A stretch of DNA of 59,899 nt from Nanobdellota archaeon (GCA_018220985.1 JAAOXS010000014.1:1-59899); one strand, 5' to 3'; positions 22,657 through 49,408 are shown, numbered from the stretch's first letter. Translations and numbers: made by a program. The notes: generated by a model from the sequence alone, not told the origin.

Positions 22657-22730
22657 AGCCTCAGAAGGGATTTGAACCCTCGACCTCCGCCTTACCAAGG
22701 CGGTGCGCTACCGAACTGTGCCACTGAGGC
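22657..22730 (-). tRNA. tRNA-Thr(GGU)
   Basis: Acceptor GCCTCAG/CTGAGGC, anticodon arm CCGCC-TTGGTAA-GGCGG, T arm GAGGG-TTCAAAT-CCCTT. No intron. Confidence 0.85.
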
Positions 22731-26403: not shown

Positions 26404-26478
26404 GCCCTTGTAGTCTAGCACGGTCAAGGATTCTGGCCTTTCAAGCCAGGGACCCGGGTTCAAATCCCGGCGAGGGCA
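26404..26478 (+). tRNA. tRNA-Glu(UUC)
   Basis: Acceptor GCCCTTG/CGAGGGC, anticodon arm CTGGC-CTTTCAA-GCCAG, T arm CCGGG-TTCAAAT-CCCGG. No intron. Confidence 0.9.
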
Positions 26479-26529
26479 CTATCATAACCTTTTCTTGAAA
26501 AGAAAAGCTTGAGTAAAAGAATGTTAATA

Positions 26530-26577: not shown

Positions 26578-27678
26578 CTAAATCAAAACACTAATTTGCC
26601 AAGCCATACCAGCAATTAAAATAATCATCATTAAATAAGGCAAAAAGTCAGACCCTCCAACAACAAACTCTGGCTTCCTATTACTCTTTTCACGCGATTT
26701 AATAACCATCAAACAAATCATACAACCAATCACGCCACCTGAAAAAGAGCCTATAACACTAAGAATTCCAATAAAACCTGGCTGCAACACCAACCATGCA
26801 AACAAAGGAACAGCAAGTGTTAAAAACCAAGGAACACGCTTCTTAAACTTCATATCCAACATAAACATGTCCTTCATAACAACGCCAATCGCTAGGAAAG
26901 ACGTGACGAACAAAAGCAAAGTCATGAACGCACCGATAAACAATAAACCACCAGTAAGAGATTGCGTGGCAACACTATCAACACTTGAACCGAACACGCC
27001 GACAAAAGAATACGAAAACAAAACATAAAGAAAAATAATAACGCCATAAGAAAACATTATTATCTTAGCCAAATTCTTCTTATCATCATTCATCTCACGA
27101 GCTACTTCTGGAATAATTGTAAAACCCATAAAACCAAAAAGAATAACACCATAACCCACGAAAGGCGTGCTCGAAATAATTGAAAAATTCTCAAACCGTG
27201 AATTAGGAACTATAAACATACATAATAATAAAATAACGCCCACAAGCAATAAAGATAGAAAACTTTCTGCACGCGCGATAACGTGCAACCTGAACAAAAG
27301 TAAAATAAACATTGCACCAATAACCAAATAAGAAATTAAATGCCCGTAAAAACCAAAAACATTTACTAAAACACTATTAATCCCCACTAAATAAGCAGTT
27401 AACGCACCGTACTGGCTTAATATAAAAGCCCAAAACATTAACCGTTTAGCATTAACTCCAAGATAACGTTTTGCAAGAACAACTAATTGATGATTCCCTT
27501 TAGTTCTAAGAACAACTTCGCCCACAAACAAGTTAAGAACAGTAATCATCAAACCGAGAAACACAATTTGAAACACACCATTCCAAAAACCTGCCTGAGA
27601 AATCACAAAAGGCAAACCCAACATGCCCGCGCCAACAACAAGAGCAATAATGGTGCCTGCAGAAATCATTCCACTCAT
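26578..27678 (-). CDS. Amino acid permease (Trp/Tyr permease / Aa_trans-like)
   Basis: 366 aa, about 10-11 TM. N-terminal sequence ..GAGMLGLPFVISQAGF.. is typical of this transporter family. Confidence 0.65.
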   Translation of the reverse strand: MSGMISAGTIIALVVGAGMLGLPFVISQAGFWNGVFQIVFLGLMITVLNLFVGEVVLRTKGNHQLVVLAKRYLGVNAKRLMFWAFILSQYGALTAYLVGINSVLVNVFGFYGHLISYLVIGAMFILLLFRLHVIARAESFLSLLLVGVILLLCMFIVPNSRFENFSIISSTPFVGYGVILFGFMGFTIIPEVAREMNDDKKNLAKIIMFSYGVIIFLYVLFSYSFVGVFGSSVDSVATQSLTGGLLFIGAFMTLLLFVTSFLAIGVVMKDMFMLDMKFKKRVPWFLTLAVPLFAWLVLQPGFIGILSVIGSFSGGVIGCMICLMVIKSREKSNRKPEFVVGGSDFLPYLMMIILIAGMAWQISVLI

Positions 27679-27717
27679 AAAACTTAATAATTAAAACACT
27701 AAAATAAAAGTGTTATT

Positions 27718-27733
27718 AAAAAAGGAAAAAAAA
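27718..27733 (-). terminator. T8-CC-T6 tract after the last gene of the surface-protein cluster
   Basis: Starts 2 nt after the stop of 27736-27960 on the coding strand. Confidence 0.4.
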
Positions 27734-27735
27734 TT

Positions 27736-27960
27736 TTACTTTCTTTTTCTTCGCTTCTTCTTACCTTTCAACAATTTCAAATCATCCTCTAATTCATCTT
27801 CAATTCCGCGCAACCGCTTAGTTAAATCAACAAGGGTTTTAACAGATTTCTTTAATTGTCTGAATTCAAATTCGAGAATTATTAAGTAAACAACAACTAC
27901 AATAGATAAAATCGTTAACAATTCAAGAAGGGGAACGTCAATGCCGAAAATGTAAACCAT
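27736..27960 (-). CDS. Small membrane-anchored coiled-coil protein with a poly-basic tail
   Basis: 74 aa with an N-terminal TM (LLELLTILSIVVVVYLIIL), a charged helix and a C-terminal KGKKKRRKRK. It starts 1 nt after the stop of the upstream giant gene. Confidence 0.55.
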   Translation of the reverse strand: MVYIFGIDVPLLELLTILSIVVVVYLIILEFEFRQLKKSVKTLVDLTKRLRGIEDELEDDLKLLKGKKKRRKRK

Positions 27961-27961
27961 C

Positions 27962-30900
27962 CTACTTTAATTTACCTCTCCTAATTACGTAATAAATCAT
28001 TAAACCGCCTAATAAAACTATGAAAATTAAAGTAACATTGCGAGACACGATTGGTTCAACACCTGCAACGCTAAAACCCGTTTTTCCAACACTAATAACT
28101 GACCCAATACCCCCCCTAAAACGAGCTCCTGCAACGTAAGCACCAGTAGGCATGAATGTTGAAATCTGAAATGTGTCTTCAATCTCAGTTGTTTCAGCAG
28201 GGTTTAAAGCTCTTAAATCAAGAATGTTTGAATGCACTAAATCCATTCCTTCAGAGTAAACTTCTGTTTCAATAAAAGGATGTTTAACATCTTCAGCGCC
28301 GTTAATCACTGTAATAGTCAACATAACTTCATCATTGGATGCGTATTCACCTTTATCCGTTTTAATAATGACCAATGGGTAACTCTCCTTAAACAGTACT
28401 CCAACTTCTTTCAACGAATTAGCAGGAAATTCAGGAATTAAAACTGACAATGTTTTACCTGAAAAATCTAATATTTCCCCAAATTCATTAGTTACTGAAA
28501 TAACTTGACTTGACTTAATAGGTAAATTAAAACGTACATTTTCATAATCTTCTTCAGCGAAGTTTCTTAAAGAAACTTTAACTTTTAATTCAATAAGATT
28601 ATCCGAAATTTTTTCTAAAACCTCAACATCCCTTCCAGTTTCCAAAACGGGAGGGGTAAAAACTTTAAGCGTGTAAACACGAGATTCTTGAGCACCTATT
28701 CTTGAAGACCATACAAGAGTTTTACCAATAATTTCAGCATTCTCAACTATTTCCTCACCAAAATCATTAACGTAAGTAACACGATAATTTAGAGCATCAT
28801 TAAATATTTCTGTTTCAAAAATTGGCTCAACAGGTGCGAGATTAGGATTGTAAACTTCAAAATTCTTAAACCATTCAACAGGCTTACCTACCGTAACAAA
28901 TTGTGAAACTTGAAATTCTGAATCCGTAATAACAGGTTCAAGAAGTGGCGGTGACAACGTAATTTTAATAAAACCAAACGCGTTTGAACCAAAACTTTCA
29001 CCAGTTTTAGGATCAAAACCAGCTAATTGCATAGGCATCACGTAATCTCCCTCACTGTTTATACGAACTTGGTAAGAAATATTAAACTGGTCACCATCAT
29101 ACATGACACCATCCCATGTTCCACCTTCATACGTGTACTCATAACCAGTAACTTGAATTCCATCACTAAGCGTAATTGAACCATTATTGTAAGCTAAGAA
29201 TTCAGTTCCATTTGACCAAATGCTCCAGCCAGAACCACTCTCATCATTAAAACTAACAGTAACATTTGTGAAATTAAAATCCGTTCCTGCAGGAATAAAA
29301 TCAATCCACTTAATACCTGAAATCCCCCCTTGCGCAGCACTTTTATCAATAACTGAAATGTTTATTGTAACATTAACTAATGTTTCATCACTTGAGTCAT
29401 CAATCCAAACTTGCTTGTAAGCAAGTAAACGTTTTTCACTTGCAGTAACAGTTTGATTAGGTTGAGCTTCAGTTATTGGCGTGCCACCAGTTGTAATAAA
29501 TTTTGTTTGACCCCAAAAAGTAAAGTTTTCACCAGTTAAAATATTATTAGAACTTAAAACCTGAAAAGTAACATTAATAAAATCCTCCCCGCCATTTGAC
29601 AAATTAGAACCCAAATTATCACCACTAAAGTCAATGCAATTAACCCGAGATAAATCATGAATTGTAACATTAAGAACGCCGAACGTGCCTGATGAAGGAT
29701 CAGTTATTGAAATATTAATAACCCCTGTTTCATTAGTAGAATTTAACAATAAATCATGCGTACTATTATGATAATAAATTTTGATATCATAAGAATTATT
29801 AATATCAAACAATCTTTCATTACTACCCACATCATCCTCATAAGGTACTTTTGAAAGCAATTCTATCTCACCAACATCAAGAGAATCATCACCATTATGT
29901 GTTGCCTTATCCGTAATAAGTAAAGCATTATTCGCAGTTTCAGGTAAAAGAACACCTGAAGGCGCTGGTTTTTCAGGAGTTATATCAATCTCGTAAAGAG
30001 TTGGAAAAACAAGTGTCGTGTTTATTTCACCATAATACACGGGCGATGCCCAATCGACTTGCCAATCAAAAGCAACAGAAAAATAAGGTTTACCACTTGA
30101 AGTGGCTGTATTAAACCAATCAGTATAAATTCGCGAATCACTAGGCTCTAAACTACTATTCCAATCACCAGAACTCGTGTAAGTAAGATTATAATCATCA
30201 AATGGCGCGCCATTTGAAGCGTTAATTTCGTAAATTGTCCAATTAGTCACATTATAAATTAAATCATTAGAACCCGTATCAGCAGCGTTTTCGACAAAGC
30301 CTCTAATCTGCCAATTTCCAGTAGAAGGATTTGGCGCAAAATCCACTCCTTGAAGAACAGGACCTCTCGTGAATAAATTAGCAATAGAGTTACTTGTTAA
30401 AACTTGGGTTGTAATGTTCCAACTCGTTCGCGCTCCAAGAGATGTTCCACCATCCAAACCATTAAGATTATTTGAAGTTGTAGTATAATGAAAATTTCCT
30501 TGAACGTCCGCGTCAAAATCTATTGCAAGCTCGGAACCTGCATTAATATTACCAACCCAAATTAATGTATCATTATCACCATCAGCGTCAGAATCACTTA
30601 CTGCAATTGAGGTTTGAGAAGTACCAGTACCATAACTACTTAATCCCGTTGTTAAAATATTAACAGCATCCTGCGCAGCTGTTTTTGCAAATGAAATTCT
30701 AACATAAACATCATCCCCATCCAAATTCTTATCAGCACTGGGATTAGTTATGTTGATTATAAAATCAAAAGTATTATTAATACCACCACTTCCAACATTA
30801 TCTTCAGAATACATGTTAGAACCTCCTTGTTGATTATTATACGTCCAAAAGTGCAGTGCTAAAGACGGCGCCGCTGTAATGTTACTAATATTATAAGCAT

Positions 30901-31255
30901 TATCCCAATTAGTATCATCACCATCATCAGTAGCATTGACTTTAATACGTGTTTTATCCCCCGCACCAGGTGATGCAGCAACATTACGAACAGAGGTATT
31001 CGTATTAATATCTGTTTCATCAAGGGCATCAGAAAGATTAATCCTAATGTATTGTAAAACGTCAACAGTATTAGGAACAACTACATCAACATAACCTTGC
31101 CAATCAATATCCACTGAAATAGTCCCATCTACATTATAGCTTCCAGTAACTGTTTCAGTAAGGTAAGGCGTAGGACTAGTAGCGAAAACAGGTGTTTCAA
31201 ATAATGAGCAAACTAACAGGAAAAATAACAATAAATATGCTTTATTTTTAATCAT
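27962..31255 (-). CDS. Giant surface protein P1 (1097 aa): signal peptide, C-terminal TM anchor
   Basis: Signal peptide MIKNKAYLLLFFLLVCSLFETPVFA and C-terminal TM LIFIVLLGGLMIYYVI + RRGKLK. Many N-x-S/T sequons. Paralogous to 31806-34994 (shared DVLQYIRINLS, F[ST]RGP, PVEW[FY].N..VYNPN). Confidence 0.7.
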   Translation of the reverse strand: MIKNKAYLLLFFLLVCSLFETPVFATSPTPYLTETVTGSYNVDGTISVDIDWQGYVDVVVPNTVDVLQYIRINLSDALDETDINTNTSVRNVAASPGAGDKTRIKVNATDDGDDTNWDNAYNISNITAAPSLALHFWTYNNQQGGSNMYSEDNVGSGGINNTFDFIINITNPSADKNLDGDDVYVRISFAKTAAQDAVNILTTGLSSYGTGTSQTSIAVSDSDADGDNDTLIWVGNINAGSELAIDFDADVQGNFHYTTTSNNLNGLDGGTSLGARTSWNITTQVLTSNSIANLFTRGPVLQGVDFAPNPSTGNWQIRGFVENAADTGSNDLIYNVTNWTIYEINASNGAPFDDYNLTYTSSGDWNSSLEPSDSRIYTDWFNTATSSGKPYFSVAFDWQVDWASPVYYGEINTTLVFPTLYEIDITPEKPAPSGVLLPETANNALLITDKATHNGDDSLDVGEIELLSKVPYEDDVGSNERLFDINNSYDIKIYYHNSTHDLLLNSTNETGVINISITDPSSGTFGVLNVTIHDLSRVNCIDFSGDNLGSNLSNGGEDFINVTFQVLSSNNILTGENFTFWGQTKFITTGGTPITEAQPNQTVTASEKRLLAYKQVWIDDSSDETLVNVTINISVIDKSAAQGGISGIKWIDFIPAGTDFNFTNVTVSFNDESGSGWSIWSNGTEFLAYNNGSITLSDGIQVTGYEYTYEGGTWDGVMYDGDQFNISYQVRINSEGDYVMPMQLAGFDPKTGESFGSNAFGFIKITLSPPLLEPVITDSEFQVSQFVTVGKPVEWFKNFEVYNPNLAPVEPIFETEIFNDALNYRVTYVNDFGEEIVENAEIIGKTLVWSSRIGAQESRVYTLKVFTPPVLETGRDVEVLEKISDNLIELKVKVSLRNFAEEDYENVRFNLPIKSSQVISVTNEFGEILDFSGKTLSVLIPEFPANSLKEVGVLFKESYPLVIIKTDKGEYASNDEVMLTITVINGAEDVKHPFIETEVYSEGMDLVHSNILDLRALNPAETTEIEDTFQISTFMPTGAYVAGARFRGGIGSVISVGKTGFSVAGVEPIVSRNVTLIFIVLLGGLMIYYVIRRGKLK

Positions 31256-31312
31256 ACTCCCTCAATGATTTATTACAAATTGTTTTATTAAATAGTTTAT
31301 TGTTGAAGTAGT

Positions 31313-31813
31313 TTAAAGAACACGTTCTTTTTCACGGTCCAATCTTTTCCTAATCTTCCTAAGCTGTTGTTCTTGCATTAAAGTTTCTTTAATAACAAGA
31401 GATAACTGATCTAAAAACACACGCGTTTTTTCCTCTTTCTTCTCAAAACTCGCTTTTTCCCTGCGAAGAAAGCTTATTTCCTTCTTAACTTTAGGTAATT
31501 GTTTCTTCTTTTTTTCCAAATCCCGAATCCAATTATCTATTTTCTTTTTCTCTTCAAGCTTTTTCTTTATATTACGCTCATTAACATCAACATTCCTGCT
31601 AAGACGTTCTTTAAGTTCTGTTAAATTCTTTTTTTTAGCTTTTAATTTTACAACACGAGTTTTAACAGTTTCGTAAACTTTCTCCTGCTCGATTCGAGAT
31701 AAATCAATATCCCCCAGCAAACGATTCCTAGTTTCGAATAATTGCTTATCAACATTAGAAATAGATTTTTTTAAAGAATCAATATTATCAAAAATTTTTT
31801 TCTTACTATACAT
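31313..31813 (-). CDS. Basic coiled-coil protein (166 aa, no TM)
   Basis: K/E/R-rich heptad-like sequence. Its start overlaps the upstream giant gene by 8 nt and is preceded by a G7 tract. Confidence 0.6.
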   Translation of the reverse strand: MYSKKKIFDNIDSLKKSISNVDKQLFETRNRLLGDIDLSRIEQEKVYETVKTRVVKLKAKKKNLTELKERLSRNVDVNERNIKKKLEEKKKIDNWIRDLEKKKKQLPKVKKEISFLRREKASFEKKEEKTRVFLDQLSLVIKETLMQEQQLRKIRKRLDREKERVL

Positions 31814-34800
31814 TGCCCCCCCTTTTTAATACATTATCTATGCGCCTTAATAACTTTTGCTCCTCTGAAATTCTCTTTCTTATTTTACGCTTTTTTGGCT
31901 TTGGCTTTATTTTATGTTTAACCATTCTTTTCGGTTTAGGAGAGCGTTTAAAATGCTTAAACAATTTTTTAACCTGTTTCAACTGCGAATTCAAAAACAT
32001 TACACCATCAACATTTAATATTCTCCAAGCACTAATTAGTCTTTCCTTATTCCTTTTAGCGAGGATTACAACAAAAAACATAAAGAAAAAAGGTATAATC
32101 CAAATAATGCTTATTGCCTTTTCATTACCTGAAATAGTAAAATAATAAGTTTCGGATGCTAAAGTAAGATAATCTTTTTTCAAACTACCTAACACCAAAT
32201 ATTCTCCAGAAGGTAATTCTAACAACAATTCCCTAAAAAATGATATTTCATCAAACGCGTTTATTTTAGTGAATTCTTTAACATCAGCATAAACCACGCT
32301 AAAAGAATTCATTGGACCCACTACGTCAAGTTCAAGCATTGCGTAAGCCATATCAGTTTTAGTGATTGCGGAAACATTTATTTTTAAAAAATCATTCGGG
32401 TTCAAAAATTTTTTATCAGTAGTTATAGTTATTTTAGGAGGGTACTCTAATGAGCTTATTTTTACAGGTTTTGAAGTCAAAGCTCCAATCAAAGGAATAT
32501 TTATTAATAAAACATTATTCTCTTTTTCGAATTCCAGTACGCCATCATCGCTTGAAACTTCGAAAATTTGCGCAAAACTTGTTTTCATATTATAAGAAAC
32601 ATTCTCATAATCTTCTAAAGCAGTGTTTTCAAGAGTTGAAGAAGTGAATAAACGTATTGCAGTAGAATTATAAGTGGTAAAACTTGTTGAGTAAAGTGTC
32701 TCTATTATTGGCGGCGTGTAAACAGTTAATAAAAATGTTTTATACTCTTGCGACTTAATTGAATCAACCCATGACACGCTTAAAGATGAAGAATCAGCAA
32801 TTAATCTCGTTATTTCCCCTTCCACAGTTGATGATAATGCATCTGAAAAAATTTTAATTGTGAAAGGCTGTGAAATTTCAAAATTATTAGGGTTGTAAAC
32901 AGTTATGTTATTATACCATTCAACAGGTTCACCTACCAAACAATTTCCTTGAATAAAACCTGATTTTGCAACTATTAAAGGTTGAGTTATTATTGGTTTA
33001 GCACTCCCTGTTTCAATAATTGAAACAAGGTAAGATGTTATTTCCTCGGAAATGATTTTTCCAGTTGAAGGACTATAACCAAAAAATTCTGTTCCGAAAG
33101 TGTGAACACCTTTCCCACGTAAAAACGTTAAATAATTAATATTTAATAAATCACTATCATACATCAACCAATCCCCCCACTCGCGTTCAATAAGATAAAC
33201 ACCATCACCTTGACTTGCAATAATCACATCATCCTGAATCCAAGTATCAATAGAGGAATCATAAAAAAATGCTTTAACACTAGACTCATTGAGAACTGAG
33301 TCATTATACAAATACAAATACGCTTTAACATTTGAAATACCCTCACCAGTGTTATCATTAGCAATTACTCCGCTTGTAATGTTCCCAAAATTATTAAAAG
33401 CACTCGCATCATTTGTTATGACTTCAAAACCTGTTCTGCTCAATCGTTCAGAAATTATTCCATCACCCCCACCCCCACCACCAATTATGGTATCCTCACT
33501 TGAAGGAATAGTAACAATTTTAGAAGTGTTTTTTTCAAAAACAGTTCCGCTTAAAGTTCTTATTAAAGAATCAACACTAAAAGAAAACTGTTGTTTTTCA
33601 TTAGCAGCTTTTGAAGAAAGTTGATATGAAACAATTATCATATCATTTGGGAACAATATTTTATCAGAGCTAACAACAACTTTATTATAAAAAGTTGAAA
33701 TTGAAGCAGTTATTGGAATTAAAGAACCATTATAATAATAAACATTAACAGAATCCACATACCATGTTATATAACCATATTCTGAATAATATGGAATTTT
33801 TGAAGTTATAGTTGTAAAATTAGTGTTTGAAGTTCCAAGATTCTGAACTTTATCAGTGATAATTAGTTCACGATTAACTTCATTAGTTGCAATTTGAACC
33901 AGTTTGTAAACTTCAGAATTAACAAGATCCAAAAAAGGAAAATACGTGTTAGTAATCAAATTATTCTCGTAAATTGTAGAATTCCAAATAGACTTCCAAT
34001 CAAAAGATGAACTGTAATAAATTGATTTATCAGCACCCAGCCATTCAGTAAAATAATCTTGAGAAGGTGAAAGAAAAACATTAATTATTTCTTCCTGTTT
34101 TGGAGTTGAATTATTAACTTCATAAATACTCCATTGACTAATATTATAAACCAATTCATCAGCAACGTTTTTAATAAAACCTCTTACACGCACTTCAGGT
34201 GAAATGATCATTTCCACACCCTCCCTAATTGGACCTCTTGAAAACAAATCTGAAACAGAAATATTCGTAAAAGTATTAGGATTATCAAAACTTGAAAAGG
34301 CATAATCCACTAATTGGTGCGTTGAATAACCATCCCAATTAATACCCTCAATAATTCTTACAGTAAAATAAACAATAAATGGTTCTGTTCCAGCAATTCC
34401 CGACCAAGTGATTAAATCATTAAAACCATCACTATCAGAATCAATAATTACACCACTTGAAGCATTTGATAAGTTGGCGGAATCATTTATTCCTAAAACA
34501 TTTTTAAAAAAAATAATTGAAAAATTAGCAGGTGTATTATTAACAGATGCGTTAATTCTAATTGTGAAATTTAAAGTATTGCTTCCTTTAACTAGTTCAT
34601 GACCTCCTGAATCCAGATTCACCCAATCAATTATTAAATTTGATGACTGGGAAACATTAAAAGTGTATGATAAATCTTGCGAAGATGCTGACGTGTTAAG
34701 AAAAAGGAATGTTCTATCACCAATGTTAGGTGAAGCTGCAGTAGCACGGTAAGCAGTAACTGATTCTAAATTAGTACTTGTTATTGAAGAAAGATTTATG

Positions 34801-34994
34801 CGAATGTATTGTAAAACATCATTTGAAGGTGTGATAACTTGAACATACCCTTTACTTGTTGAATTAATAATTGAATTATTATAATATTGATTTAAAGTTA
34901 AGTTTTCAACAAGTATTGCTTGAGGATTAGCAAAAACGGGAGTTACTAATAAAACAAAAATTAAAACCATCCTCACCATATTACATATATTCAT
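31806..34994 (-). CDS. Giant surface protein P2 (1062 aa): signal peptide, C-terminal TM plus an ~85-aa K/R-rich tail
   Basis: Signal peptide MVRMVLIFVLLVTPVFA, TM IIWIIPFFFMFFVVIL, tail ..KPKPKKRKIRKR... Sequon-rich, with a GGGGGG linker. Paralog of P1. Confidence 0.7.
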   Translation of the reverse strand: MNICNMVRMVLIFVLLVTPVFANPQAILVENLTLNQYYNNSIINSTSKGYVQVITPSNDVLQYIRINLSSITSTNLESVTAYRATAASPNIGDRTFLFLNTSASSQDLSYTFNVSQSSNLIIDWVNLDSGGHELVKGSNTLNFTIRINASVNNTPANFSIIFFKNVLGINDSANLSNASSGVIIDSDSDGFNDLITWSGIAGTEPFIVYFTVRIIEGINWDGYSTHQLVDYAFSSFDNPNTFTNISVSDLFSRGPIREGVEMIISPEVRVRGFIKNVADELVYNISQWSIYEVNNSTPKQEEIINVFLSPSQDYFTEWLGADKSIYYSSSFDWKSIWNSTIYENNLITNTYFPFLDLVNSEVYKLVQIATNEVNRELIITDKVQNLGTSNTNFTTITSKIPYYSEYGYITWYVDSVNVYYYNGSLIPITASISTFYNKVVVSSDKILFPNDMIIVSYQLSSKAANEKQQFSFSVDSLIRTLSGTVFEKNTSKIVTIPSSEDTIIGGGGGGDGIISERLSRTGFEVITNDASAFNNFGNITSGVIANDNTGEGISNVKAYLYLYNDSVLNESSVKAFFYDSSIDTWIQDDVIIASQGDGVYLIEREWGDWLMYDSDLLNINYLTFLRGKGVHTFGTEFFGYSPSTGKIISEEITSYLVSIIETGSAKPIITQPLIVAKSGFIQGNCLVGEPVEWYNNITVYNPNNFEISQPFTIKIFSDALSSTVEGEITRLIADSSSLSVSWVDSIKSQEYKTFLLTVYTPPIIETLYSTSFTTYNSTAIRLFTSSTLENTALEDYENVSYNMKTSFAQIFEVSSDDGVLEFEKENNVLLINIPLIGALTSKPVKISSLEYPPKITITTDKKFLNPNDFLKINVSAITKTDMAYAMLELDVVGPMNSFSVVYADVKEFTKINAFDEISFFRELLLELPSGEYLVLGSLKKDYLTLASETYYFTISGNEKAISIIWIIPFFFMFFVVILAKRNKERLISAWRILNVDGVMFLNSQLKQVKKLFKHFKRSPKPKRMVKHKIKPKPKKRKIRKRISEEQKLLRRIDNVLKRGGNV

Positions 34995-35000
34995 ATTTTT

Positions 35001-38000
35001 TCATTTATGACTCTTTTTATTTTTTCGAACAGCGCGATTTTTAACATGAGTAAGAGTTAATTTATCATACCTTTCAATTTTAACAGTTCTAATTCTAAAT
35101 GTTAAAACAACTATAACACCAAACAAGATTACTACTAAAACCCAAATCAAACTACTTGACGTATCAGAACCTTTAACTTCAAAAGTTCGAGTACTTATCG
35201 CTTCTCTTCCAGCATAAGTTACGAGCGCTTCAAAAGCGTAAACTCCTGAACGCGTTTTTTCAGGAATTCTTAAAACTAATTCTTTATCAACTTGATCTGT
35301 AACAGCAATAGTATCTGTTGATTCAGTAATCAAATTACCTTCTAATGTTTTTGCTGAATAAGTTATTGCAACATCAACAGTTGCTTTAGGACCTCCAATA
35401 TTTAAAATGGTTAGCAGTGCTTTCACGCGCTCACCTGGATTAATAATTATATCCAACAATTCTAAAATGGTATCAAACAAAGGTACAACCAATTTCACAT
35501 GAGTTTCAGTGTTAACATGTTTCTTGTATGTTGGATCAAAACCCGCAATTATTGTTGGCAACACCCATGTTCCACCACCAATAATGCTCACATTCATGGT
35601 AACATTAATCGTGTCACTTTCGTACAAAGTTCCATCCCAAGCAGATTCTAAACCTGTTGAAAAATTGTATTTGTAAATGTCAACGCTTAAACCATCAGGT
35701 AATAATTCAGAAGTACTAGCATATTTTATGTAGTCAGTTCCATCACTAAGCTCTATTATAGTATCATTATTGTATGTTATGTTTAAGTAATCAATGCTTG
35801 CGCCAACAGGTAAATAATCAGCTATGTGAATATCAGTTATGTTCCCACCAACAGCTTTCAGTATAAAAGTTATGCTCGCGTTAAGAGGGTTTACTTCATC
35901 AATGTCTAATGATTTATATGATTTCAAAAATGCGTGAGATGAAGTAATATTCTCCCATAATGAATCAATGTATTGCGTATTATCTGTATTATTTATTGTT
36001 GTGTTCGCGTCAAAAATTTTTGAAACATCCACGTCAAGCTCTGAAGAAATCATAGAATAATAAATCCTAATTTTTTCCGAATCCATTAAGTATGTTCCAA
36101 TATTCGTTTCAGACATATTATAAATGGTAAGATTTATTTCAGTTTCAGGGTCAGCGTCAATATCACTAACTGTAACATCAAAACCCGAACTTAACAAAGT
36201 ATTAGAACTACCAAGATGCCACACATCAACACTACCCTCGCTAGGTGCAGTAAATCCTCCTGGCACTTCATCAATTATTTCAACAAAATAAACTGGGTTA
36301 TTTGAACCATTATTTTCAAGAGTTGTGTTAACATTAATTGTTTCAACAGTTTTTGGTAAAACCCAATTCTGAGAAATGTACTTACTCATTTCCACTGTTA
36401 CAACACGAATTGTTAAATTATACGCTAAATCATTGCTTGGCGAACCGAACTCGCAAGTCGTGTTAATAGTAATATTATAACTACCAGTATCATTAACAGT
36501 TATAGTCCAATTAGGGTAATAACACGAATTGTTAGTAATATTATAAGGCCCATAAGTCCACGCGTCAGGACTCAAATCATCACCATCACCTGTGTAAAAA
36601 AGGATTTTAGGCACGCAATTAGAAATATTACCATTCTCAGAACAAATAGAAGCGTTAACGTAAAAATCATAATTTTTAGTTATGTAAGAATCATTTACGG
36701 GCGTTGATATATTCGTTGTTGAATTACCAATCTCATCTAATTCAATTGGAGGATCTCCAGGCTCTAATCCTTTAACAGTTATTACATTATTCACTTTATC
36801 AATTGAAAAATTGGTTAATTCCATCCAATTACCATTACACACACGATTGTTAAAATCCCAATCATCACACTTGAAAGGTCGTAAATTATCCTCGGAACTA
36901 ATGCTACTTATCTTACTTGAATAACTTATGTTAGCCTCAGCGTAATCAAAATTCAAAGATAAATTGAACATTACCATCTCAACACCTGTTAAGCTGCCCA
37001 TGTTTTCATCATCATTTGGTGAATCATCAAAACTGATTTTATCAGCGAACGACTCGTTAATTGACACGTTATAAACTGTGATGTTCAATTTATTATTAAA
37101 AGCGTTGATAACCAAATCATAATATCCTTCATCCAAACGATTATTGTAATCACCACTAAAATCAGTGTCAAAATCGTATTCTACTGTTTGAGTTCCCAGC
37201 TCATAAAAAGTGAAATTTACTAGTACTGCAGTACTATCACCATCCTCTAAAGTTCCGCTCAACAAGTGGGAAGGAATTATGGTGATAGTAACATTACTAG
37301 TACTATTATCACCAATCTCATTATATGAAGAAGTAAAATTAACATCCAATTCATACGCGTCATTGATTGTTCCTGTAACATTCAGAGACCAATTAAGTTG
37401 GCACACATCCTGATAAACCAAAACACCGCAAGACTGAGGATTAGAATCACCTGTATAAAACGGAATTGCTTCACTTGTGCTTACAATAGTGTCAGGTGTT
37501 GTTATAGAAGCATTATACCTTACACCACCACTAACAGAACCGCATTTCGCCCCACTTGTCGTTCCACCACAAACAATAGTTGTGTTAAACCATTTCATAG
37601 TTATATTACCCCAAGTAATATCATCAGATGGTGTTTGTAAAGAAACTTGAAGTTCGCCATGCTCGTAAACAGTATACAATTGTGTTTCAGTAACGTTCCA
37701 CTCATCATTTGAATCATTAGCCCAAATTTTCCACTCAACAGTTTTACCCCAGCACTGACTTGGCCAAGACTTGTTAATCCAAGTTAAATTACTCGCAGGC
37801 ATTTCAACCCATGATTCATTAGCGCTTACTGTTGAACAATCCACTTCGGAAGCGTTTACAAAAAATTTGTAACCACTTAATGCAGTATTATCACTCCATT
37901 CAGCTTCGTGCTGGACAACTTCATTTTCAAAAACGTCAGAATTGTTAGTCTGAACATTAGTTGATTGGGGTGGTGGAGGATCTATTACGTGATTAAACTC

Positions 38001-39116
38001 TAAAAAAGCGATTTCAGAATCGTCGTTAACAATTCTTAAATCAAAAGTATTATGACTACCTTCCATTCCTATTAAATAAATTTTATAATACTTTTCAGAA
38101 ATGATAATTGGGAATTCAGTGATTTTTTTAGAAGTGTTAAAATAATAAACTTCTATTAATGTGTTAAAACTCTGATTGTTACGAACATAAACTGTAATAT
38201 CATTAATTGCTGTTAAGTTTTGTTCAAAAATAACTCTTAAAAATTCATTCTCATAAATTGGCTCTGACCACGCGTCATCCAATTCTTTAACTTCTTCAAA
38301 AACATTAGAAATTAAAGAATAATTTTCATCCAAGTGCATTGCATTTGTTATTTCAATTACAACTCTGAATGTTTGATTAATCAAGTAAGGAATAATCCAA
38401 GATAATACAGAATTATTCAAAGAAATGTTGTAATCAGAATTGTTAGTGATGTCAACGGGGGAATTGTTACTAATTTCATAAATTCTAAATCTTGTTTTAG
38501 TTGGAACATTAGTGCTAACAGAAACGTTTTCATAACCTTCAAAAACAGAACTAACTAACACGTTTTTAACTAAGTTGGAATTATTAATTAACAAAAATTC
38601 CTTCTTAACAGGTGCTGGAGTGGAATACACAATTTCAAAATAATCATTAAACCTGACAAGTGAAATATTAACTGCTCCTTCAGGAACTTTTTTCAAAGCG
38701 AAAGTTTCATTAAAAGCTTTAACTCTTGCAATCCAATTAACAGGTTTCTCTACAATAATTGAAGAATGGCTGTAATTTATTAATTTAGAATCGTCAATGG
38801 CGTATGAAAAACTAGTGGTGGCGTTAAGAACATTAAATAATATAATGTTGTGCGTTTCATTGTATGGGGAAACAACGCCACCACCAGAGAATAATTCAAT
38901 AACATTAGTTGGTATGAAAAACTCAACGGGTTTGTTTAATAACATTCTGAAAGAATTGTTAATCAACCCATTTTCACGCGCTGAAGAAAAATTAATTGTG
39001 TTATTAAGATTTTTAGTAAAAAAACCAGTAATGGAACCTGATAAATCAAAAATTAATAAAGCTAAGAATAATACGGTAAGCACTATTTTGACCCAAGGTC
39101 GTAAAATCTTCCCCAT
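35001..39116 (-). CDS. Giant surface protein P3 (1371 aa): N-terminal signal anchor, C-terminal TM plus basic tail
   Basis: N-terminal VKIVLTVLFLALLIF, C-terminal TM LIWVLVVILFGVIVVL. It shares AGFDP and the membrane-proximal module with P1/P2. Sequon-rich. Confidence 0.7.
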   Translation of the reverse strand: MGKILRPWVKIVLTVLFLALLIFDLSGSITGFFTKNLNNTINFSSARENGLINNSFRMLLNKPVEFFIPTNVIELFSGGGVVSPYNETHNIILFNVLNATTSFSYAIDDSKLINYSHSSIIVEKPVNWIARVKAFNETFALKKVPEGAVNISLVRFNDYFEIVYSTPAPVKKEFLLINNSNLVKNVLVSSVFEGYENVSVSTNVPTKTRFRIYEISNNSPVDITNNSDYNISLNNSVLSWIIPYLINQTFRVVIEITNAMHLDENYSLISNVFEEVKELDDAWSEPIYENEFLRVIFEQNLTAINDITVYVRNNQSFNTLIEVYYFNTSKKITEFPIIISEKYYKIYLIGMEGSHNTFDLRIVNDDSEIAFLEFNHVIDPPPPQSTNVQTNNSDVFENEVVQHEAEWSDNTALSGYKFFVNASEVDCSTVSANESWVEMPASNLTWINKSWPSQCWGKTVEWKIWANDSNDEWNVTETQLYTVYEHGELQVSLQTPSDDITWGNITMKWFNTTIVCGGTTSGAKCGSVSGGVRYNASITTPDTIVSTSEAIPFYTGDSNPQSCGVLVYQDVCQLNWSLNVTGTINDAYELDVNFTSSYNEIGDNSTSNVTITIIPSHLLSGTLEDGDSTAVLVNFTFYELGTQTVEYDFDTDFSGDYNNRLDEGYYDLVINAFNNKLNITVYNVSINESFADKISFDDSPNDDENMGSLTGVEMVMFNLSLNFDYAEANISYSSKISSISSEDNLRPFKCDDWDFNNRVCNGNWMELTNFSIDKVNNVITVKGLEPGDPPIELDEIGNSTTNISTPVNDSYITKNYDFYVNASICSENGNISNCVPKILFYTGDGDDLSPDAWTYGPYNITNNSCYYPNWTITVNDTGSYNITINTTCEFGSPSNDLAYNLTIRVVTVEMSKYISQNWVLPKTVETINVNTTLENNGSNNPVYFVEIIDEVPGGFTAPSEGSVDVWHLGSSNTLLSSGFDVTVSDIDADPETEINLTIYNMSETNIGTYLMDSEKIRIYYSMISSELDVDVSKIFDANTTINNTDNTQYIDSLWENITSSHAFLKSYKSLDIDEVNPLNASITFILKAVGGNITDIHIADYLPVGASIDYLNITYNNDTIIELSDGTDYIKYASTSELLPDGLSVDIYKYNFSTGLESAWDGTLYESDTINVTMNVSIIGGGTWVLPTIIAGFDPTYKKHVNTETHVKLVVPLFDTILELLDIIINPGERVKALLTILNIGGPKATVDVAITYSAKTLEGNLITESTDTIAVTDQVDKELVLRIPEKTRSGVYAFEALVTYAGREAISTRTFEVKGSDTSSSLIWVLVVILFGVIVVLTFRIRTVKIERYDKLTLTHVKNRAVRKNKKSHK

Positions 39117-39149: not shown

Positions 39150-40748
39150 TTATGTGCAAGATTTAACAAAATTCAAGAATAAGGGTTCTGGTTTTTCAAA
39201 ACTACTTGAAAACTCTGGATGAGCTTGAGTTGCAAAAAAAAATTTGTGCTCAGGTAATTCTATGAACTCCACTAATTTTTCATCAGGTGAAATCCCTGAA
39301 AACACCAATCCATTCTCTTGAAGCAAAACATGATATTTTGGATTAACTTCATACCTATGCCTATGCCTGCGAAGTATTATGCTCTCACCGTAAATTTCGA
39401 AAAGTTTAGAACCTTTTTTTATGACAGTAGGATAATTACCTAAACGCATTGACGAGCCATAATCATTATTCTTTAATAATTCCCGCTGCTCTGGTAAAAT
39501 ATCAATCACTGAATGTTCCGCTCCAACATCAAACTCAGAGCTATTAGCTTTTAACCCGCACACGTTTCTAGCAAAATCAATAACTGCAACTTGCAATCCT
39601 AAACACAAACCCAAATATGGAATATTATTTTCACGCGCGTATTTTGCAGCTCGTATTTTTCCCTCAATACCAGTACTTCCAAAACCACCTGGAACAATCA
39701 CGCCATCCACTTCACTTAATAACTCTGGTTTTTTTTCGATTTCCAAAGCATCAAACCACACGATTTCAGGTTCAATACTTAAATGAGTTGCAGCATGTTT
39801 CACAGATTCTACAACACTCACATAAGAATCAGGTAATAAAAAAGCACCTGTTTTAAAATATTTAGCGACCAAACCTATTTTCACTTTTTTCTTAGGTGAA
39901 TTAATTTTTTCAATAAGAGAATTCCATAAATCCAAATCAGGCTTTCCATTTTCAATATTAAATTTTTCAAAAATTTGAGAAGTCATACCTTGCTCCTCAA
40001 GTAATAATGGAACTTTGTAAACAGATTTCACATCATGAGATGAAAAAATGTTTTTACTAGAGATATTGCAAAAAGTGCTTATCTTTTTTTTACGAACATC
40101 ATCAACAGGTCGCTCTGAACGGCAAACAATCATATCTGGAGCAACGCCCATTTCCCACAAAAAACGAACAGATTGTTGAACAGGCTTTGTTTTCGCTTCA
40201 CCTAAATGTGCAGGTATTGGAACGTACACGACATGAACAAAAATAACAGGCAAATCTTCCTCATACTTAAGTAATCTGCAAGCTTGCAGAAAAGGAATGT
40301 TCTGATAATCACCAGCAGTGCCTCCAATTTCAACAAGAATAAAATCAGTATCATCTTTAGCTACATTCTTAATTCTTCTTTTAATTTCCTCACTCACATG
40401 AGGAAAAATTTCAACATCACTGCCCAAATACTTTCCAGAACGCTCATTTTGAATAACTTGCAAATAAACCTGACCAGTCGTAATATTATTTTGTTTTGAT
40501 AATTCCCGATTCAGGAATCGTTCATAATGACCTAAATCCTGATCGGTTTCACCGCCATCATAAGTTACCCAAACCTCACCATGAACAGTTGGGCGCATAG
40601 TCCCAGCATCAATGTTTAAGTAAGGGTCAATTTTGCAAATTTGAATTTTAAAACCACGTGCTTGTAATAATTTACCAATGCTTGAAGTTACAATACCTTT
40701 ACCAAGACCTGAAATAACTCCCCCCGTAATAATAATAAATTTAAGCAT
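39150..40748 (-). CDS. pyrG: CTP synthase
   Basis: N-terminal ITGGVISGLGKGI and the C-terminal glutamine amidotransferase motif GLCLGLQ, 532 aa. Confidence 0.95.
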   Translation of the reverse strand: MLKFIIITGGVISGLGKGIVTSSIGKLLQARGFKIQICKIDPYLNIDAGTMRPTVHGEVWVTYDGGETDQDLGHYERFLNRELSKQNNITTGQVYLQVIQNERSGKYLGSDVEIFPHVSEEIKRRIKNVAKDDTDFILVEIGGTAGDYQNIPFLQACRLLKYEEDLPVIFVHVVYVPIPAHLGEAKTKPVQQSVRFLWEMGVAPDMIVCRSERPVDDVRKKKISTFCNISSKNIFSSHDVKSVYKVPLLLEEQGMTSQIFEKFNIENGKPDLDLWNSLIEKINSPKKKVKIGLVAKYFKTGAFLLPDSYVSVVESVKHAATHLSIEPEIVWFDALEIEKKPELLSEVDGVIVPGGFGSTGIEGKIRAAKYARENNIPYLGLCLGLQVAVIDFARNVCGLKANSSEFDVGAEHSVIDILPEQRELLKNNDYGSSMRLGNYPTVIKKGSKLFEIYGESIILRRHRHRYEVNPKYHVLLQENGLVFSGISPDEKLVEFIELPEHKFFFATQAHPEFSSSFEKPEPLFLNFVKSCT

Positions 40749-44073: not shown

Positions 44074-45837
44074 TTATTTAACAGTGACGGATTTAGCAAG
44101 ATTTCTTGGCTTATCCACATTACAACCTTTCTCAACAGCAGTGTAATAAGCTAACAATTGGCAAGGAATGTTTGCAAGAATAGGATAATACAACGGGTCA
44201 ACCTTAGGAATCAATAATTCAAAATCGAAAACACCATTAGAATGATCAGTAATCCCAATCACGAAACCACCCCTCGCCTTAACCTCATGAATATTATTAA
44301 TCGTCTCACTGTAAGTGTAATCATAAGGTGCAATAGCGATAACAGGCGTGCCATCAGTGATTAAAGCAAGAGTACCATGCTTTAATTCTCCAGCAGGCAT
44401 TCCCTCAGCATGAATATAACTAATCTCCTTAATCTTCAACGCGCCCTCACTAGCAACTGCAAAATTAATTGCACGAGCAATATAATAAATATCATTCTCA
44501 TCCTTAATTTTTTTAGCTAACAACTTTGTTTTTTCCTCATTATTAGCAATAACTTCCCTAATCTTATCAACTAAACCACGCAACTCAACAAGCTTCTCAT
44601 CCAAATTGTACGTCATTGTATAAGCTATTTGATAAAAAATCATTAACTGACTTGAAAAAGCCTTAGTTGAAGCAACACTAATCTCAGGACCAGCGTTCAA
44701 ATAAACACTAATGTCAGATAATAAATCAAGCGACGAGCCAACAACATTAACAATACTAATAAGCTTACATCCAGCATGTTTAGCTATTCTAACAGGACCT
44801 AAAACGTCTGCAGTCTCACCGCTTTGCGAAACAGCAATTATTAACGTATCCTTACCTATCTTATCAACAAAATATTGGAATTCGCTTGCCATGTAAACTT
44901 CACAATACTTACCAGTAACTTCAGAAATAATGTACCTGCCAACAATAGCAGCATGCCTTGAAGTTCCGCAAGCAATAATGCAAACACGCGGTGCTGAATT
45001 AATCATTCTTGCAACTTCAATAAGTTTACTTTTATCCTGCATTAATGAAAGTTTTAACGTGTCAGGTTGCTCGTGAATTTCCTTAATCAAAAAATGATCC
45101 ATACCCCCTTTTGAAACATCGTAAGAACCATCAGCTACTTTTGAAACATTTTTTTTAATTTCTTTACCTGAAAAAAAATCGTAAAAAACAGCCCCACCAT
45201 TTTTCACCACAACAGCTTCACCGTCACTCATAAAAACCACGTTACGCGTTTTATTACTAAACGATAACGTATCCGAAGCTATGAAAAACTCGTTCTCACC
45301 AATACCAGTCACTAAAGGACTTTCCTTCCTGCATGCTACAAGCATTTTTTCCTTAACGTGCATTGCAATGAACGCGAACGAACCTTTAAGTTTTAAAGCA
45401 GTTTTGAAAACTGCTTGCACAAAATCACCATCATAAAATTCCTCTATTAAATGAGCTATTACTTCACTGTCTGTCTCGCTCTTGAAAACATGATTTTTCA
45501 ATTCTTTTTTTAATTCAACAAAATTTTCAATAATGCCATTATGAACAATAGCTATATCCCCACTACACGATGTGTGAGGATGCGTGTTTTCATCAGTAAC
45601 ACCACCATGCGTTGCCCAACGCGTATGAGAAATCCCAATATTACCCTCAACGTTTTCAAAACGTTTCTCCTCACAAACTTTTCCAACGCTTCCAATACCC
45701 TTAAGAACATGTATATCAGGATTTTTTAAAACTGCAATACCGCAAGAATCATAACCTCGATACTCCAGTCTTTTCAAACCCCGCGTCAAAATTTTTGAAG
45801 CTTGTTCCTGACCAACATAACCAATTATTCCACACAT
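44074..45837 (-). CDS. glmS: Glutamine--fructose-6-phosphate aminotransferase
   Basis: ATG at 45837 gives MCGIIGY, providing the required N-terminal nucleophile Cys (the track start at 45846 is GTG). Two SIS domains and a C-terminal ..NLAKSVTVK. Confidence 0.95.
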   Translation of the reverse strand: MCGIIGYVGQEQASKILTRGLKRLEYRGYDSCGIAVLKNPDIHVLKGIGSVGKVCEEKRFENVEGNIGISHTRWATHGGVTDENTHPHTSCSGDIAIVHNGIIENFVELKKELKNHVFKSETDSEVIAHLIEEFYDGDFVQAVFKTALKLKGSFAFIAMHVKEKMLVACRKESPLVTGIGENEFFIASDTLSFSNKTRNVVFMSDGEAVVVKNGGAVFYDFFSGKEIKKNVSKVADGSYDVSKGGMDHFLIKEIHEQPDTLKLSLMQDKSKLIEVARMINSAPRVCIIACGTSRHAAIVGRYIISEVTGKYCEVYMASEFQYFVDKIGKDTLIIAVSQSGETADVLGPVRIAKHAGCKLISIVNVVGSSLDLLSDISVYLNAGPEISVASTKAFSSQLMIFYQIAYTMTYNLDEKLVELRGLVDKIREVIANNEEKTKLLAKKIKDENDIYYIARAINFAVASEGALKIKEISYIHAEGMPAGELKHGTLALITDGTPVIAIAPYDYTYSETINNIHEVKARGGFVIGITDHSNGVFDFELLIPKVDPLYYPILANIPCQLLAYYTAVEKGCNVDKPRNLAKSVTVK

Positions 45838-45931
45838 AGCACTCACTAAAAATTATTCGCCCAGTTAAAAACGAGTATTCAAAATCAAAACAATTAAAGA
45901 TTTATAAACTTAATGAACAAAAAGTATCAAA

Positions 45932-48321: not shown

Positions 48322-48388
48322 CTCAGTAATATAACTGACAAAAACACATATAAAAAACTTATTAAAAACAAGCGCTAAATAAGTTATT

Positions 48389-49408
48389 ATGAAAGTCTTA
48401 CTTAAAGACAAAAAACACAACACGCTAAAAATAGTGATAGACGATAATGAAGATTATTACTATTTAGATAAATTAGTGAACGCCGGCGATAAAATAAAAA
48501 CTGTTTCTTACAGAAAAACCAAAAAAGGACGTAAAGAAGAAACAGTCAAAAAAAAATACGTAATAGAAATAGTTCTTGAACAAACAATTTTTGGTACGAA
48601 CAACTTACGATTTAAAGGAAAAATAACGTGGACTAACAGTGATGACGTGCCACTTGGCAGCTACCACTCACTAACAGTGGAACAAGGAAGTAAAATCACC
48701 ATTACAAAAAAAATAGTGAAAACCGATGAAGAAATACTAAAAAAAGCAGTGAAAACGAGAAAAACAAAAATCGCACTAAGCGTAATTGATTACGGAGAAG
48801 CTCATTTCGGAATACTAGAAAAAAACAAAATAAGAAGATTAGGCAGTTTTGAAGAAAACATAAATGAAAGAGAAATAAAAAAAACGGAGAACAATCAAAA
48901 AAAGTACTTGAAAGAATACGCTAAAAAATTAGAAGAATTAAACAAACAAGAACAACCAGGAATAATCATAATTGGCTCAACAGGATTCATGAATGAACAC
49001 GTAAAAAAAATAATGCCAGACATTCTAAAAAAGAAAACACACTATTGCAAAGTATCCAACACAACACAAAGAGGATTGCAAGAAATAATTAATCGCGACG
49101 AAACAGGCAAAATACTAGCTGAAGAAGAAGTAAGCAAAGAAACAGGAATAATAAATTTGTTTTTTGAAAAAATAGGGAAAAAAAATTCTAAAACAATCTA
49201 CGGATTAAAAATTGTAAAAGAAAAAACAATGACTGGCGCTGTTGAAACATTACTAATAAGTGATGAATTATTAAAAAACGAAGAAATAAGAAACATAATT
49301 GAAAAAAACGAAGAATTAAGCGGGAAAATAGAAATAATAAGCTCGCAACACGGGAAAGGTGAAGAGTTCTTAAAATTCGGTGGAATAGGCGCTTTTCTCA
49401 GGTATTAA
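48389..49408 (+). CDS. pelA: Pelota (aDom34) mRNA surveillance / ribosome rescue factor
   Basis: 339 aa with an N-terminal Sm-like domain sequence and central/C-terminal eRF1-like domains (..VETLLISDEL..). Family recognised by eye. Confidence 0.8.
   Translation: MKVLLKDKKHNTLKIVIDDNEDYYYLDKLVNAGDKIKTVSYRKTKKGRKEETVKKKYVIEIVLEQTIFGTNNLRFKGKITWTNSDDVPLGSYHSLTVEQGSKITITKKIVKTDEEILKKAVKTRKTKIALSVIDYGEAHFGILEKNKIRRLGSFEENINEREIKKTENNQKKYLKEYAKKLEELNKQEQPGIIIIGSTGFMNEHVKKIMPDILKKKTHYCKVSNTTQRGLQEIINRDETGKILAEEEVSKETGIINLFFEKIGKKNSKTIYGLKIVKEKTMTGAVETLLISDELLKNEEIRNIIEKNEELSGKIEIISSQHGKGEEFLKFGGIGAFLRY

Follow-up and report, generated by a model that had tools for sequence, protein, structure and literature searches.

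A pair of predicted Ig-array surface proteins with a dedicated small membrane partner adjoins giant adhesin-ATPase genes in DPANN-labelled archaeal genomes

Introduction

Which proteins allow DPANN archaea to attach to their hosts and to exchange material with them? To our knowledge, the only recurrent molecular candidates are giant proteins of the SPEARE type, and we know of no partners for these. The question is raised anew by a cluster of five genes (positions 27736-39116, all on the minus strand) in a 59,899-nt stretch of DNA from a Nanobdellota archaeon (GCA_018220985.1 JAAOXS010000014.1:1-59899), which is referred to here as the window and to which all coordinates given without a contig label apply. 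The cluster encodes three large proteins, P3, P2 and P1, and two small ones, cc166 and s74. In a preliminary description made from the DNA alone, it was taken for a lineage-specific cell-surface apparatus, S-layer-like or for host attachment, composed of three paralogous anchored proteins and basic coiled-coil partners. That interpretation is partly supported, in that P1-P3 appear to be uncharacterised surface glycoproteins bearing arrays of immunoglobulin (Ig)-like domains, with a dedicated miniature transmembrane partner. It overlooked the most informative neighbourhood, namely the context of genes for giant adhesin-ATPases, one of which reaches into the window with its C-terminal end at the edge. 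We give an even chance to the reading that P2, P1 and s74 act together with such a giant protein as its envelope scaffold or accessory module, one that has been enlarged in the present organism by P3, cc166 and a long tail on P2. The P1/P2 pair and s74 would then be the first candidate partners of SPEARE-type giants.

The SPEARE and giant proteins of nanohaloarchaea are expressed and have a proposed role in host interaction (PMC6642349, PMC10266531). SPEARE was first interpreted as having a restriction-enzyme domain (PMC6642349) and was later re-read as carrying a VirB4/TraG-like ATPase, with a proposed function as a type-IV-secretion-like 'straw' (PMC10266531). Partners resembling P2-P1-s74 are not mentioned in either report.

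A conserved gene module and its giant neighbour

Proteins of the P1/P2 family are rare. A word-indexed search of 5.8 billion proteins returned 15 matches, an exhaustive HMMER search of 1.84 billion gave 176 representative clusters (about 60 of them near full length), and 25 loci were found among 185,579 GTDB species genomes, in metagenome-assembled genomes (MAGs) labelled Aenigmatarchaeota, Nanohaloarchaeota, Nanobdellati and similar. Labels such as 'Methanosarcinales', which some loci bear, probably stem from errors of binning or labelling. The lineage-specific character that had been proposed for the proteins is supported. Across the relatives' contigs and loci examined (labelled L001-L114), a P2-clade gene, a P1-clade gene and an s74-like gene recur in this order on one strand. 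About 15 distinct contigs have P1 followed by s74, most with a preceding P2, and the complete order is found on L001, L002, L004-L009 and L022. The window has the same order with cc166 inserted between P2 and P1, a form shared with its closest relative, L028 (from Logan SRR11241199; P1 54% identical), and on L011, L013 and L021 the P1-s74 pair lacks an adjacent P2. The concern that the cluster might be syntenic in no relative can therefore be laid aside. The conserved unit is, however, P2-P1-s74 and not the five-gene set of the preliminary description, since P3-like genes occur on only three contigs, preceding P2 on L008 and L025 as they do in the window. On L001 a short remnant of a DDE transposase (9630-9845, minus strand) lies between the P2-like and P1-like genes, so that the module can tolerate insertions between its genes.

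On 12 of the 17 contigs with enough flanking sequence, the module directly adjoins a giant gene of one family, the members of which are 30-36% identical across more than 2000 residues. The giant gene takes one of three positions: divergent and upstream of P2, downstream of s74 in tandem, or behind a second small transmembrane paralogue. A complete member of 2969 aa (L114, 3302-12208), obtained by extending the L005 locus, runs from a signal peptide to a helical C-terminus. Its ectodomain combines PQQ-like beta-propellers with Ig-like domains and is followed by a single transmembrane segment (residues 2573-2600) and a P-loop ATPase of the DUF87/HerA type (E 7e-12). The ATPase region has additional weak matches to ResIII (E 1.6e-3 at residues 2649-2794), FtsK and TrwB, and it is probably because of such a weak ResIII match that SPEARE was annotated early on as a type III restriction enzyme.

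The window itself holds the C-terminal 660 aa of a giant protein (57916-59899, minus strand), cut by the window end, with Ig-like domains, a transmembrane region at about residues 229-273 and a HerA/VirB4-like ATPase. Walker A (GGTGSGKT) and Walker B (VYDEVH) motifs are present. The matches of this fragment to DUF87 and HerA_C are weak and under the Pfam gathering thresholds, and HerA structures were found as matches in the PDB. Its orthologues on L029-L032 have lengths of at least 3146-3952 aa.

A further connection lies within the cluster. The membrane-proximal beta-sandwich and transmembrane segment of P3 (residues 1210-1347; 35076-35489, minus strand) resemble the giant ATPase protein. Residues 1210-1341 match residues 143-284 of the window protein o643 (BLASTP E 3e-8), and the membrane-proximal region matches the giants of L029-L032 at E values of about 1e-9 to 1e-12.

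In the window, the giant gene is directly followed by o932 (55108-57906, minus strand), whose product is helical and acidic (net -45) and contains stretches of heptads, and then by o301 (53828-54733, minus strand), the third gene of the trio, which encodes 301 aa without a Pfam match. Genes resembling o932, and then o301, likewise follow the giant gene on L029-L032. MAGs with the labels Woesearchaeota, Parvarchaeota and Haiyanarchaeum carry these three genes together, as do, less clearly, MAGs labelled Undinarchaeota. Stand-alone ATPases of 650-680 aa are encoded a few kb from P1-s74 on L003 (8035-10080) and L013 (2181-4139). They match DUF87 (E 3e-33 and 3e-38) and, weakly, coupling proteins of type IV secretion systems, and they recall the separate VirB4/TraG-like ATPase reported beside nanohaloarchaeal giant genes.

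P1 and P2 are paralogues with a predicted all-beta ectodomain

P1 (27962-31255, minus strand; 1097 aa) and P2 (31806-34994, minus strand; 1062 aa) align from end to end (BLASTP E 5e-65, 26% identity), and the motifs by which they had been related, DVLQYIRINLS, F[ST]RGP and PVEW[FY].N..VYNPN, all lie inside this alignment. A neighbour-joining tree places the P1 and P2 sequences in two clades whose internal branching orders mirror one another, which would fit an ancient duplication after which the two proteins co-evolved. Across the family, conservation is highest in the N-terminal, membrane-distal region and variation greatest in the central one. Relative to L028, the ectodomains of P1 and P2 retain 54% and 39% identity, respectively, as against 83% for s74.

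Hydropathy predicts one N-terminal hydrophobic signal or anchor and one C-terminal transmembrane segment for each of P1, P2 and P3. A cleavage-like ...PVFA site is conserved in P1 and P2, and the P2 signal peptide is predicted to be of the cleavable type (...TPVFA/NPQ), with the transmembrane segment at about residues 958-982. The K/R-rich cytoplasmic tail that had been ascribed to all three proteins along with these features is long only in P2, where it comprises 80 aa with a net charge of +23 and ends in SEEQKLLRRIDNVLKRGGNV. Both the tail and its terminal motif are kept on L028 and L113, with the end pattern SEEQKLLR.ID..LK.GGNV. The tails of P3 (24 aa, +7) and P1 (about 7 aa, +4) are short.

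The preliminary description had also remarked on very many N-x-S/T sequons in the three proteins, and these are two to three times more frequent than in shuffles of the same sequences: 67 against 24.4 +/- 4.1 in P3, 33 against 15.6 +/- 3.4 in P1 and 28 against 15.7 +/- 3.3 in P2. Cytoplasmic genes in the window have sequons at or under the shuffled expectation.

In an AlphaFold2 model of P1, run on a 15-sequence alignment, some ten beta-sandwich domains are predicted to follow one another in an all-beta chain that is bounded by a signal-peptide helix and, at residues 1072-1096, a transmembrane helix, with no long helices in the modelled ectodomain. Among the PDB matches of this model found with Foldseek are the Ig-like domains of PrgB (E 1e-13), mastigonemes and macroglobulin domains, and the viral library BFVD yielded a DUF11-domain protein. 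Such generic Ig-, macroglobulin- and DUF11-like matches assign P1 to no family and give no indication of a viral origin. Pfam and NCBIfam scans of all five cluster proteins gave no match above noise, and PDB sequence searches with P1, P3 and the family profile returned no match. The statement that no enzymatic or known adhesin domain could be recognised therefore holds, and the structural comparison that had been proposed as a check describes P1 as a generic beta-sandwich array.

P3 is a mosaic surface protein

P3 (35001-39116, minus strand; 1371 aa) consists of an N-terminal signal or anchor, a variable head, a stalk of the P1/P2 type, the membrane-proximal beta-sandwich described above, a transmembrane segment and the basic tail. 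The stalk (residues 867-1213; 35478-36518, minus strand) matches the family profile at positions 370-732, and is homologous to the central, most variable part of P1 and P2. Residues 601-776 of P1 and 1055-1218 of P3 share a module containing the AGFDP motif (BLASTP E 1e-16), as had been noted, whereas the EKPVNW match between P1 and P3 is by itself not significant (E 0.96). Judged by these alignments, P3 is a partial, mosaic paralogue of P1 and P2 and not a full one, because only the stalk and anchor, some 350-450 C-terminal residues, are shared and the N-terminal 860 residues differ. The C-terminal 450 aa are 39-42% identical to the P3-like genes upstream of P2 on L008 and L025.

AlphaFold was confident within residues 1-900 of P3 only at residues 113-385, where it predicts a two-domain beta-sandwich or jelly-roll module (about residues 113-385; 37962-38780, minus strand; predicted local distance difference test (pLDDT) 80-95). 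Dozens of very large surface proteins from Woese-, Pace- and Hadarchaeota have a module equivalent to residues 150-380 (35-64% identity), and the alignment of these relatives has an invariant core at residues 256-380. The module is also present in a single-cell genome of Thermoplasmatales, and it belongs to no Pfam family. Foldseek matches of residues 113-385 resemble carbohydrate-binding modules, and since they are weak (E 4e-4 to 8e-3) they give only a hint of a lectin function for the head.

The small partners s74 and cc166

The s74 protein (27736-27960, minus strand; 74 aa) is predicted to be bitopic, with an N-terminal transmembrane segment followed by a cytoplasmic amphipathic helix and a KGKKKRRKRK tail, the cytoplasmic part having a net charge of +9. 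Its family is described by the motif MYIFGI..P.LELL...YLIILE[FIY]EF[RK]Q, and the N-terminal transmembrane segment together with ILE[FIY]EF[RK]Q is strikingly conserved. Homologues of 66-82 aa directly follow a P1 orthologue on about 15 distinct contigs, so the proposal of a small transmembrane-plus-helix partner for P1 is borne out by conservation and synteny alike. In many relatives s74 is followed by a second, longer paralogue with the same transmembrane segment, EFKQL and an acidic low-complexity tail ending ...LK.MLD (L001, 13623-14102; L002, 13407-13886; L009, 11577-12071; L011, 3757-4152; L013, 11461-11874; L021, 9043-9483; L008, 11561-11803). The window has no second paralogue and has basic additions instead, namely cc166, the P2 tail and the KGKKKRRKRK end of s74.

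The cc166 protein (31313-31813, minus strand; 166 aa) is soluble by prediction, without a transmembrane segment, and is helical and highly basic (21% lysine, net +22). Its gene overlaps the end of P2 by 8 nt in the window and also on L028 and L113 (ENA ERZ27250502). Orthologues that are 87%, 51% and 47% identical (the last being that of L028, which aligns without gaps) all have 166 aa, and comparison with the 87%-identical orthologue gives 0.074 non-synonymous (dN) and 0.63 synonymous (dS) substitutions per site, a ratio of about 0.12; cc166 is under purifying selection. The gene was not detected on L001-L027 at E <= 0.01, and its four other orthologues, all of 166 aa, come from close relatives of the window, so that it is confined to a narrow clade. 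Three contigs allow both features to be seen (the window, L028 and L113), and on each of them the gene is accompanied by the long P2 tail.

Both small proteins had been called coiled coils. The assignment of cc166 as soluble and s74 as membrane-bound stands, and the heptad signal is only modestly above shuffled sequences: of 300 shuffles, 8 attain the value of cc166 itself and 4 that of s74. It had further been suggested that a basic tail might pair with a coiled-coil partner. As the P2 tail and cc166 are both strongly basic, it is unlikely that the two pair directly through electrostatics. From their charges, it is more plausible that the two share an acidic partner, for example o932, nucleic acid or lipid head groups. 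A relationship between cc166 and o932, as fragment or relative, was considered and rejected (BLASTP E 0.063, not significant).

Comparison with known surface systems

The giants that neighbour the module resemble SPEARE (NAR1_1133, SVXNc_0300, BNXNv_0298) in architecture, as set against published descriptions: both have a signal peptide, PQQ-like propellers, an Ig tandem, a transmembrane segment, a VirB4/TraG/HerA-like ATPase and a C-terminal coiled coil. P3 shares with the giant protein a similar membrane-proximal domain and transmembrane segment. P1-P3 differ in having no ATPase and short tails and in being three- to ninefold shorter, and because the ATPase is found only in the neighbouring giants we regard them as associates and not as members of the SPEARE group.

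The S-layer candidates of cultivated DPANN archaea (MJ1_0160, MJ1_0707 and others of Nanobdella aerobiophila; NEQ300; Micr_00292) are likewise of about 1000 aa with a signal peptide, several Ig-like folds, many sequons and, in some, a C-terminal transmembrane segment. They have no homology to classical S-layer families (bioRxiv 10.1101/2023.10.27.564410). General searches, which included no direct comparison, revealed no sequence relation between them and P1-P3, and the proteins considered here differ in forming a fixed paralogous pair, in having a dedicated transmembrane partner of 66-82 aa and in their linkage to a giant ATPase. As expected of an archaeal S-layer protein, P1 and P2 are, on the evidence of hydropathy, the ...PVFA site and, for P1, the AlphaFold model, predicted to be secreted beta-rich multidomain proteins with a signal peptide. 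Homology to SlaA/SlaB, Haloferax csg, DUF1608 and other S-layer families was not found with Pfam, NCBIfam, the PDB or the 50 listed Foldseek matches.

SlaA and SlaB of the Sulfolobales are two co-encoded, heavily glycosylated, beta-rich, non-paralogous proteins, of which SlaB anchors the layer by an extracellular coiled-coil stalk. The likeness lies in two co-encoded beta-rich surface proteins and a membrane-anchored layer. Here, both large proteins have a transmembrane segment of their own and are paralogues of one another, and no anchor combining an extracellular coiled-coil stalk with a C-terminal transmembrane segment is apparent in the P1 model. Since the helical parts, s74 and cc166, are cytoplasmic by predicted topology, the analogy was rejected. 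No sequence or Foldseek match to SlaA/SlaB was seen in the PDB searches.

Proteins of the DUF11/CARDB type and Ig-array adhesins of Gram-positive bacteria such as PrgB are similar in being chains of beta-sandwich domains, and the P1 model found its best Foldseek matches here, in the PrgB domains and the DUF11-domain protein. They differ in that the template-modelling scores (TM-scores) are at most 0.2 and that the anchor here is a C-terminal transmembrane segment in place of a sortase or PGF-CTERM signal; neither Pfam DUF11 nor CARDB gave a match even at E <= 1. A predicted secretion system associated with arCOG01314, comprising a MoxR-type AAA+ ATPase, a vWA protein and DUF4350, has been described beside S-layer-like Ig proteins (Makarova et al. 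2015; PMC5898192). This system (arCOG01314/arCOG02487) was rejected, as MoxR, vWA and DUF4350 domains are absent among the large open reading frames (ORFs) of the window.

What the module may do

The reading that we favour, at even odds, is that of a scaffold that accompanies the giant protein, because the giant gene adjoins the module on the majority of informative contigs and the P3 anchor resembles that of the giant. P1 and P2 would be anciently duplicated, co-evolving type-I glycoproteins, exported by Sec and probably N-glycosylated, each with about ten beta-sandwich domains and one C-terminal transmembrane helix as an anchor. Made together with them, s74 would probably pack its transmembrane segment and juxtamembrane ILE-F-EF-R/K-Q motif against the P1/P2 anchors, its cytoplasmic helix forming the inner foot of the complex. 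The lineage of the window would have added P3 (the same stalk and anchor under a different, possibly glycan-binding head), the long basic tail of P2 and the basic, helical, cytoplasmic cc166. Such a module would be functionally coupled to a SPEARE-type giant with propellers, Ig arrays, a transmembrane segment and a cytoplasmic HerA/VirB4-like ATPase, most likely as an S-layer-like scaffold or collar in which the giant host-contact machine is seated.

Several observations weigh against such a coupling. In the window, some 19 kb separate the giant gene from the cluster, and some 24 kb from P1; housekeeping genes such as pyrG, an ABC transporter, glmS and aRF1 lie between, so that, as far as gene order goes, coupling is not obligatory. 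No P1/P2 genes were found within 10 kb downstream of the giants of L029-L032, which belong to the same subfamily as that of the window, and SPEARE-type proteins exist in lineages without P1/P2, of which there are only 176 representative clusters. The adjacency might merely reflect shared regulation of envelope genes. The P1 model is of moderate confidence (pLDDT 72; predicted TM-score (pTM) 0.31) and its whole-chain Foldseek matches are generic Ig-like arrays with TM-scores of at most 0.2.

The surface-protein part of the preliminary description thus stands, and its alternative of S-layer or host attachment is not settled by sequence, the fold being a generic Ig-like array. If P1 and P2 were simply the main lattice glycoproteins of an S-layer, with s74 as an anchor or assembly helper and an incidental proximity to the giant gene, then a length of about 1000 aa, a signal peptide, multiple Ig-like folds, many sequons and a C-terminal transmembrane segment would all be accounted for, the same features having been used to nominate S-layer candidates in cultivated DPANN archaea (bioRxiv 10.1101/2023.10.27.564410). 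The conserved distal N-termini fit lattice contacts better than a variable host-binding tip, and P1 has a TATA-like element of its own and a strong Shine-Dalgarno-like site. We nevertheless consider a plain S-layer doubtful, with perhaps one chance in four, as the proteins show no sequence likeness to known S-layer families and the 50 listed Foldseek PDB matches of P1 contain no S-layer protein; the family is also rare and patchy for such a role, with its 25 loci, and its adjacency to the giant gene has survived at least three rearrangements at 30-36% identity, which is beyond usual incidental clustering. Were it true, this would be a new type of S-layer for DPANN archaea, for which no S-layer protein had been determined according to reports of 2023-24. 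Still less probable is that P1, P2 and P3 are stand-alone adhesins for host glycans or host S-layers that form no scaffold, the small proteins being unrelated passengers. The resemblance of their tandem Ig-like arrays to the PrgB domains, the variable head of P3 on its conserved stalk with a weakly carbohydrate-binding-like module, and the faster divergence of the P1/P2 ectodomains than of s74 would suit adhesins. However, s74 is strictly syntenic and highly conserved and hence no passenger, the pairing of P1 and P2 persists and their trees mirror each other, and it is the distal N-termini of the two that are most conserved, opposite to the usual behaviour of host-range determinants.

A bolder form of the scaffold reading, which we think unlikely at around one chance in five, makes P2, P1 and s74 structural subunits of a new trans-envelope machine around the giant adhesin-ATPase. 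A P1/P2 heteromer would then form an extracellular collar or conduit, with s74 as its link through the membrane to the HerA/VirB4-like motor; in the present organism this link would be supplemented by cc166 and the P2 tail, for which the acidic o932 is a possible partner. By such a device DPANN cells might move DNA, proteins or metabolites to and from their hosts. The module has carriers among MAGs labelled Aenigmatarchaeota, Nanohaloarchaeota and other DPANN groups, and P1, P2 and s74 are concrete candidates for co-purification, complex modelling and assignment in cryo-electron tomograms.

Reality of the genes and their genomic setting

The layout of the cluster agrees exactly with the preliminary description, including five co-directional ORFs of the lengths given above and the distances in the series pyrG, P3, P2, cc166, P1 and s74, which are 33 nt, 6 nt, an 8-nt overlap, 57 nt and 1 nt. 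The gene upstream, pyrG (39150-40748, minus strand), encodes CTP synthase (TIGR00337, E 1e-211), and the next gene after s74 encodes an amino-acid permease (26578-27678, minus strand). That large or small ORFs of the cluster might be annotation artefacts or decaying, non-functional genes has a sole hint in its favour, the lack of an obvious ribosome-binding site at the P2 ATG, and is effectively refuted by conservation, its probability being close to nil. The ORFs of 1062-1371 codons are unbroken in DNA of 31-35% G+C, all five have homologues of full length, cc166 combines its low dN/dS with a constant length, and s74 is well conserved on L028. All five are real genes, as each has homologues and cc166 is constrained at the values of dN and dS given above.

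Read from the sequence, the 33-nt gap between pyrG and P3 holds a TATA-like element, and no Shine-Dalgarno sequence was found before P3. Within the 57-nt spacer before P1 (31256-31312, minus strand), TTTAATAA resembles a TATA element and GAGGGAG, 3 nt ahead of the ATG, a Shine-Dalgarno site, and the spacer may serve as an internal promoter and ribosome-binding site for P1. Directly after s74, a T run, TTTTTTTTCCTTTTTT, and a short inverted repeat (27690-27735, minus strand) could form an oligo-T tract and hairpin that mark the probable end of cluster transcription.

The G+C content is even over the region, at about 0.31-0.35, and so bears no mark of foreign DNA. Other genes in the window are archaeal housekeeping genes (a split RpoB, RpoA'/A'', TFB, aEF-2 and aRF1), and the closest match to RpoA' among the species genomes is only 57% identical, in MAGs labelled Parvarchaeota or Woesearchaeota. 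For this reason the organism is placed as a deep DPANN-type archaeon without a close sequenced relative, in keeping with the DPANN origin proposed before.

Between the cluster and the giant gene, glmS (44074-45846, minus strand) encodes glucosamine-6-phosphate synthase, which could feed amino-sugar precursors into glycosylation. The same interval encodes a 775-aa protein with an N-terminal hydrophobic segment and 6.7% cysteine (46096-48423, minus strand) and a 107-aa cysteine-rich protein with a C-terminal transmembrane segment (49442-49765, minus strand). The latter is weakly similar to the former (phmmer 1e-4), neither has a Pfam match, and the two may add to the set of envelope proteins. 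On the plus strand, ORFs of 110-114 aa that run antisense within P2 and P3 (31813-32145, 33289-33624 and 38797-39141) are most likely due to chance. The sole tRNA genes found in the window are those for tRNA-Thr(GGT) (22657-22730, minus strand) and tRNA-Glu(TTC) (26404-26479, plus strand), the second situated just past the permease gene that trails the cluster.

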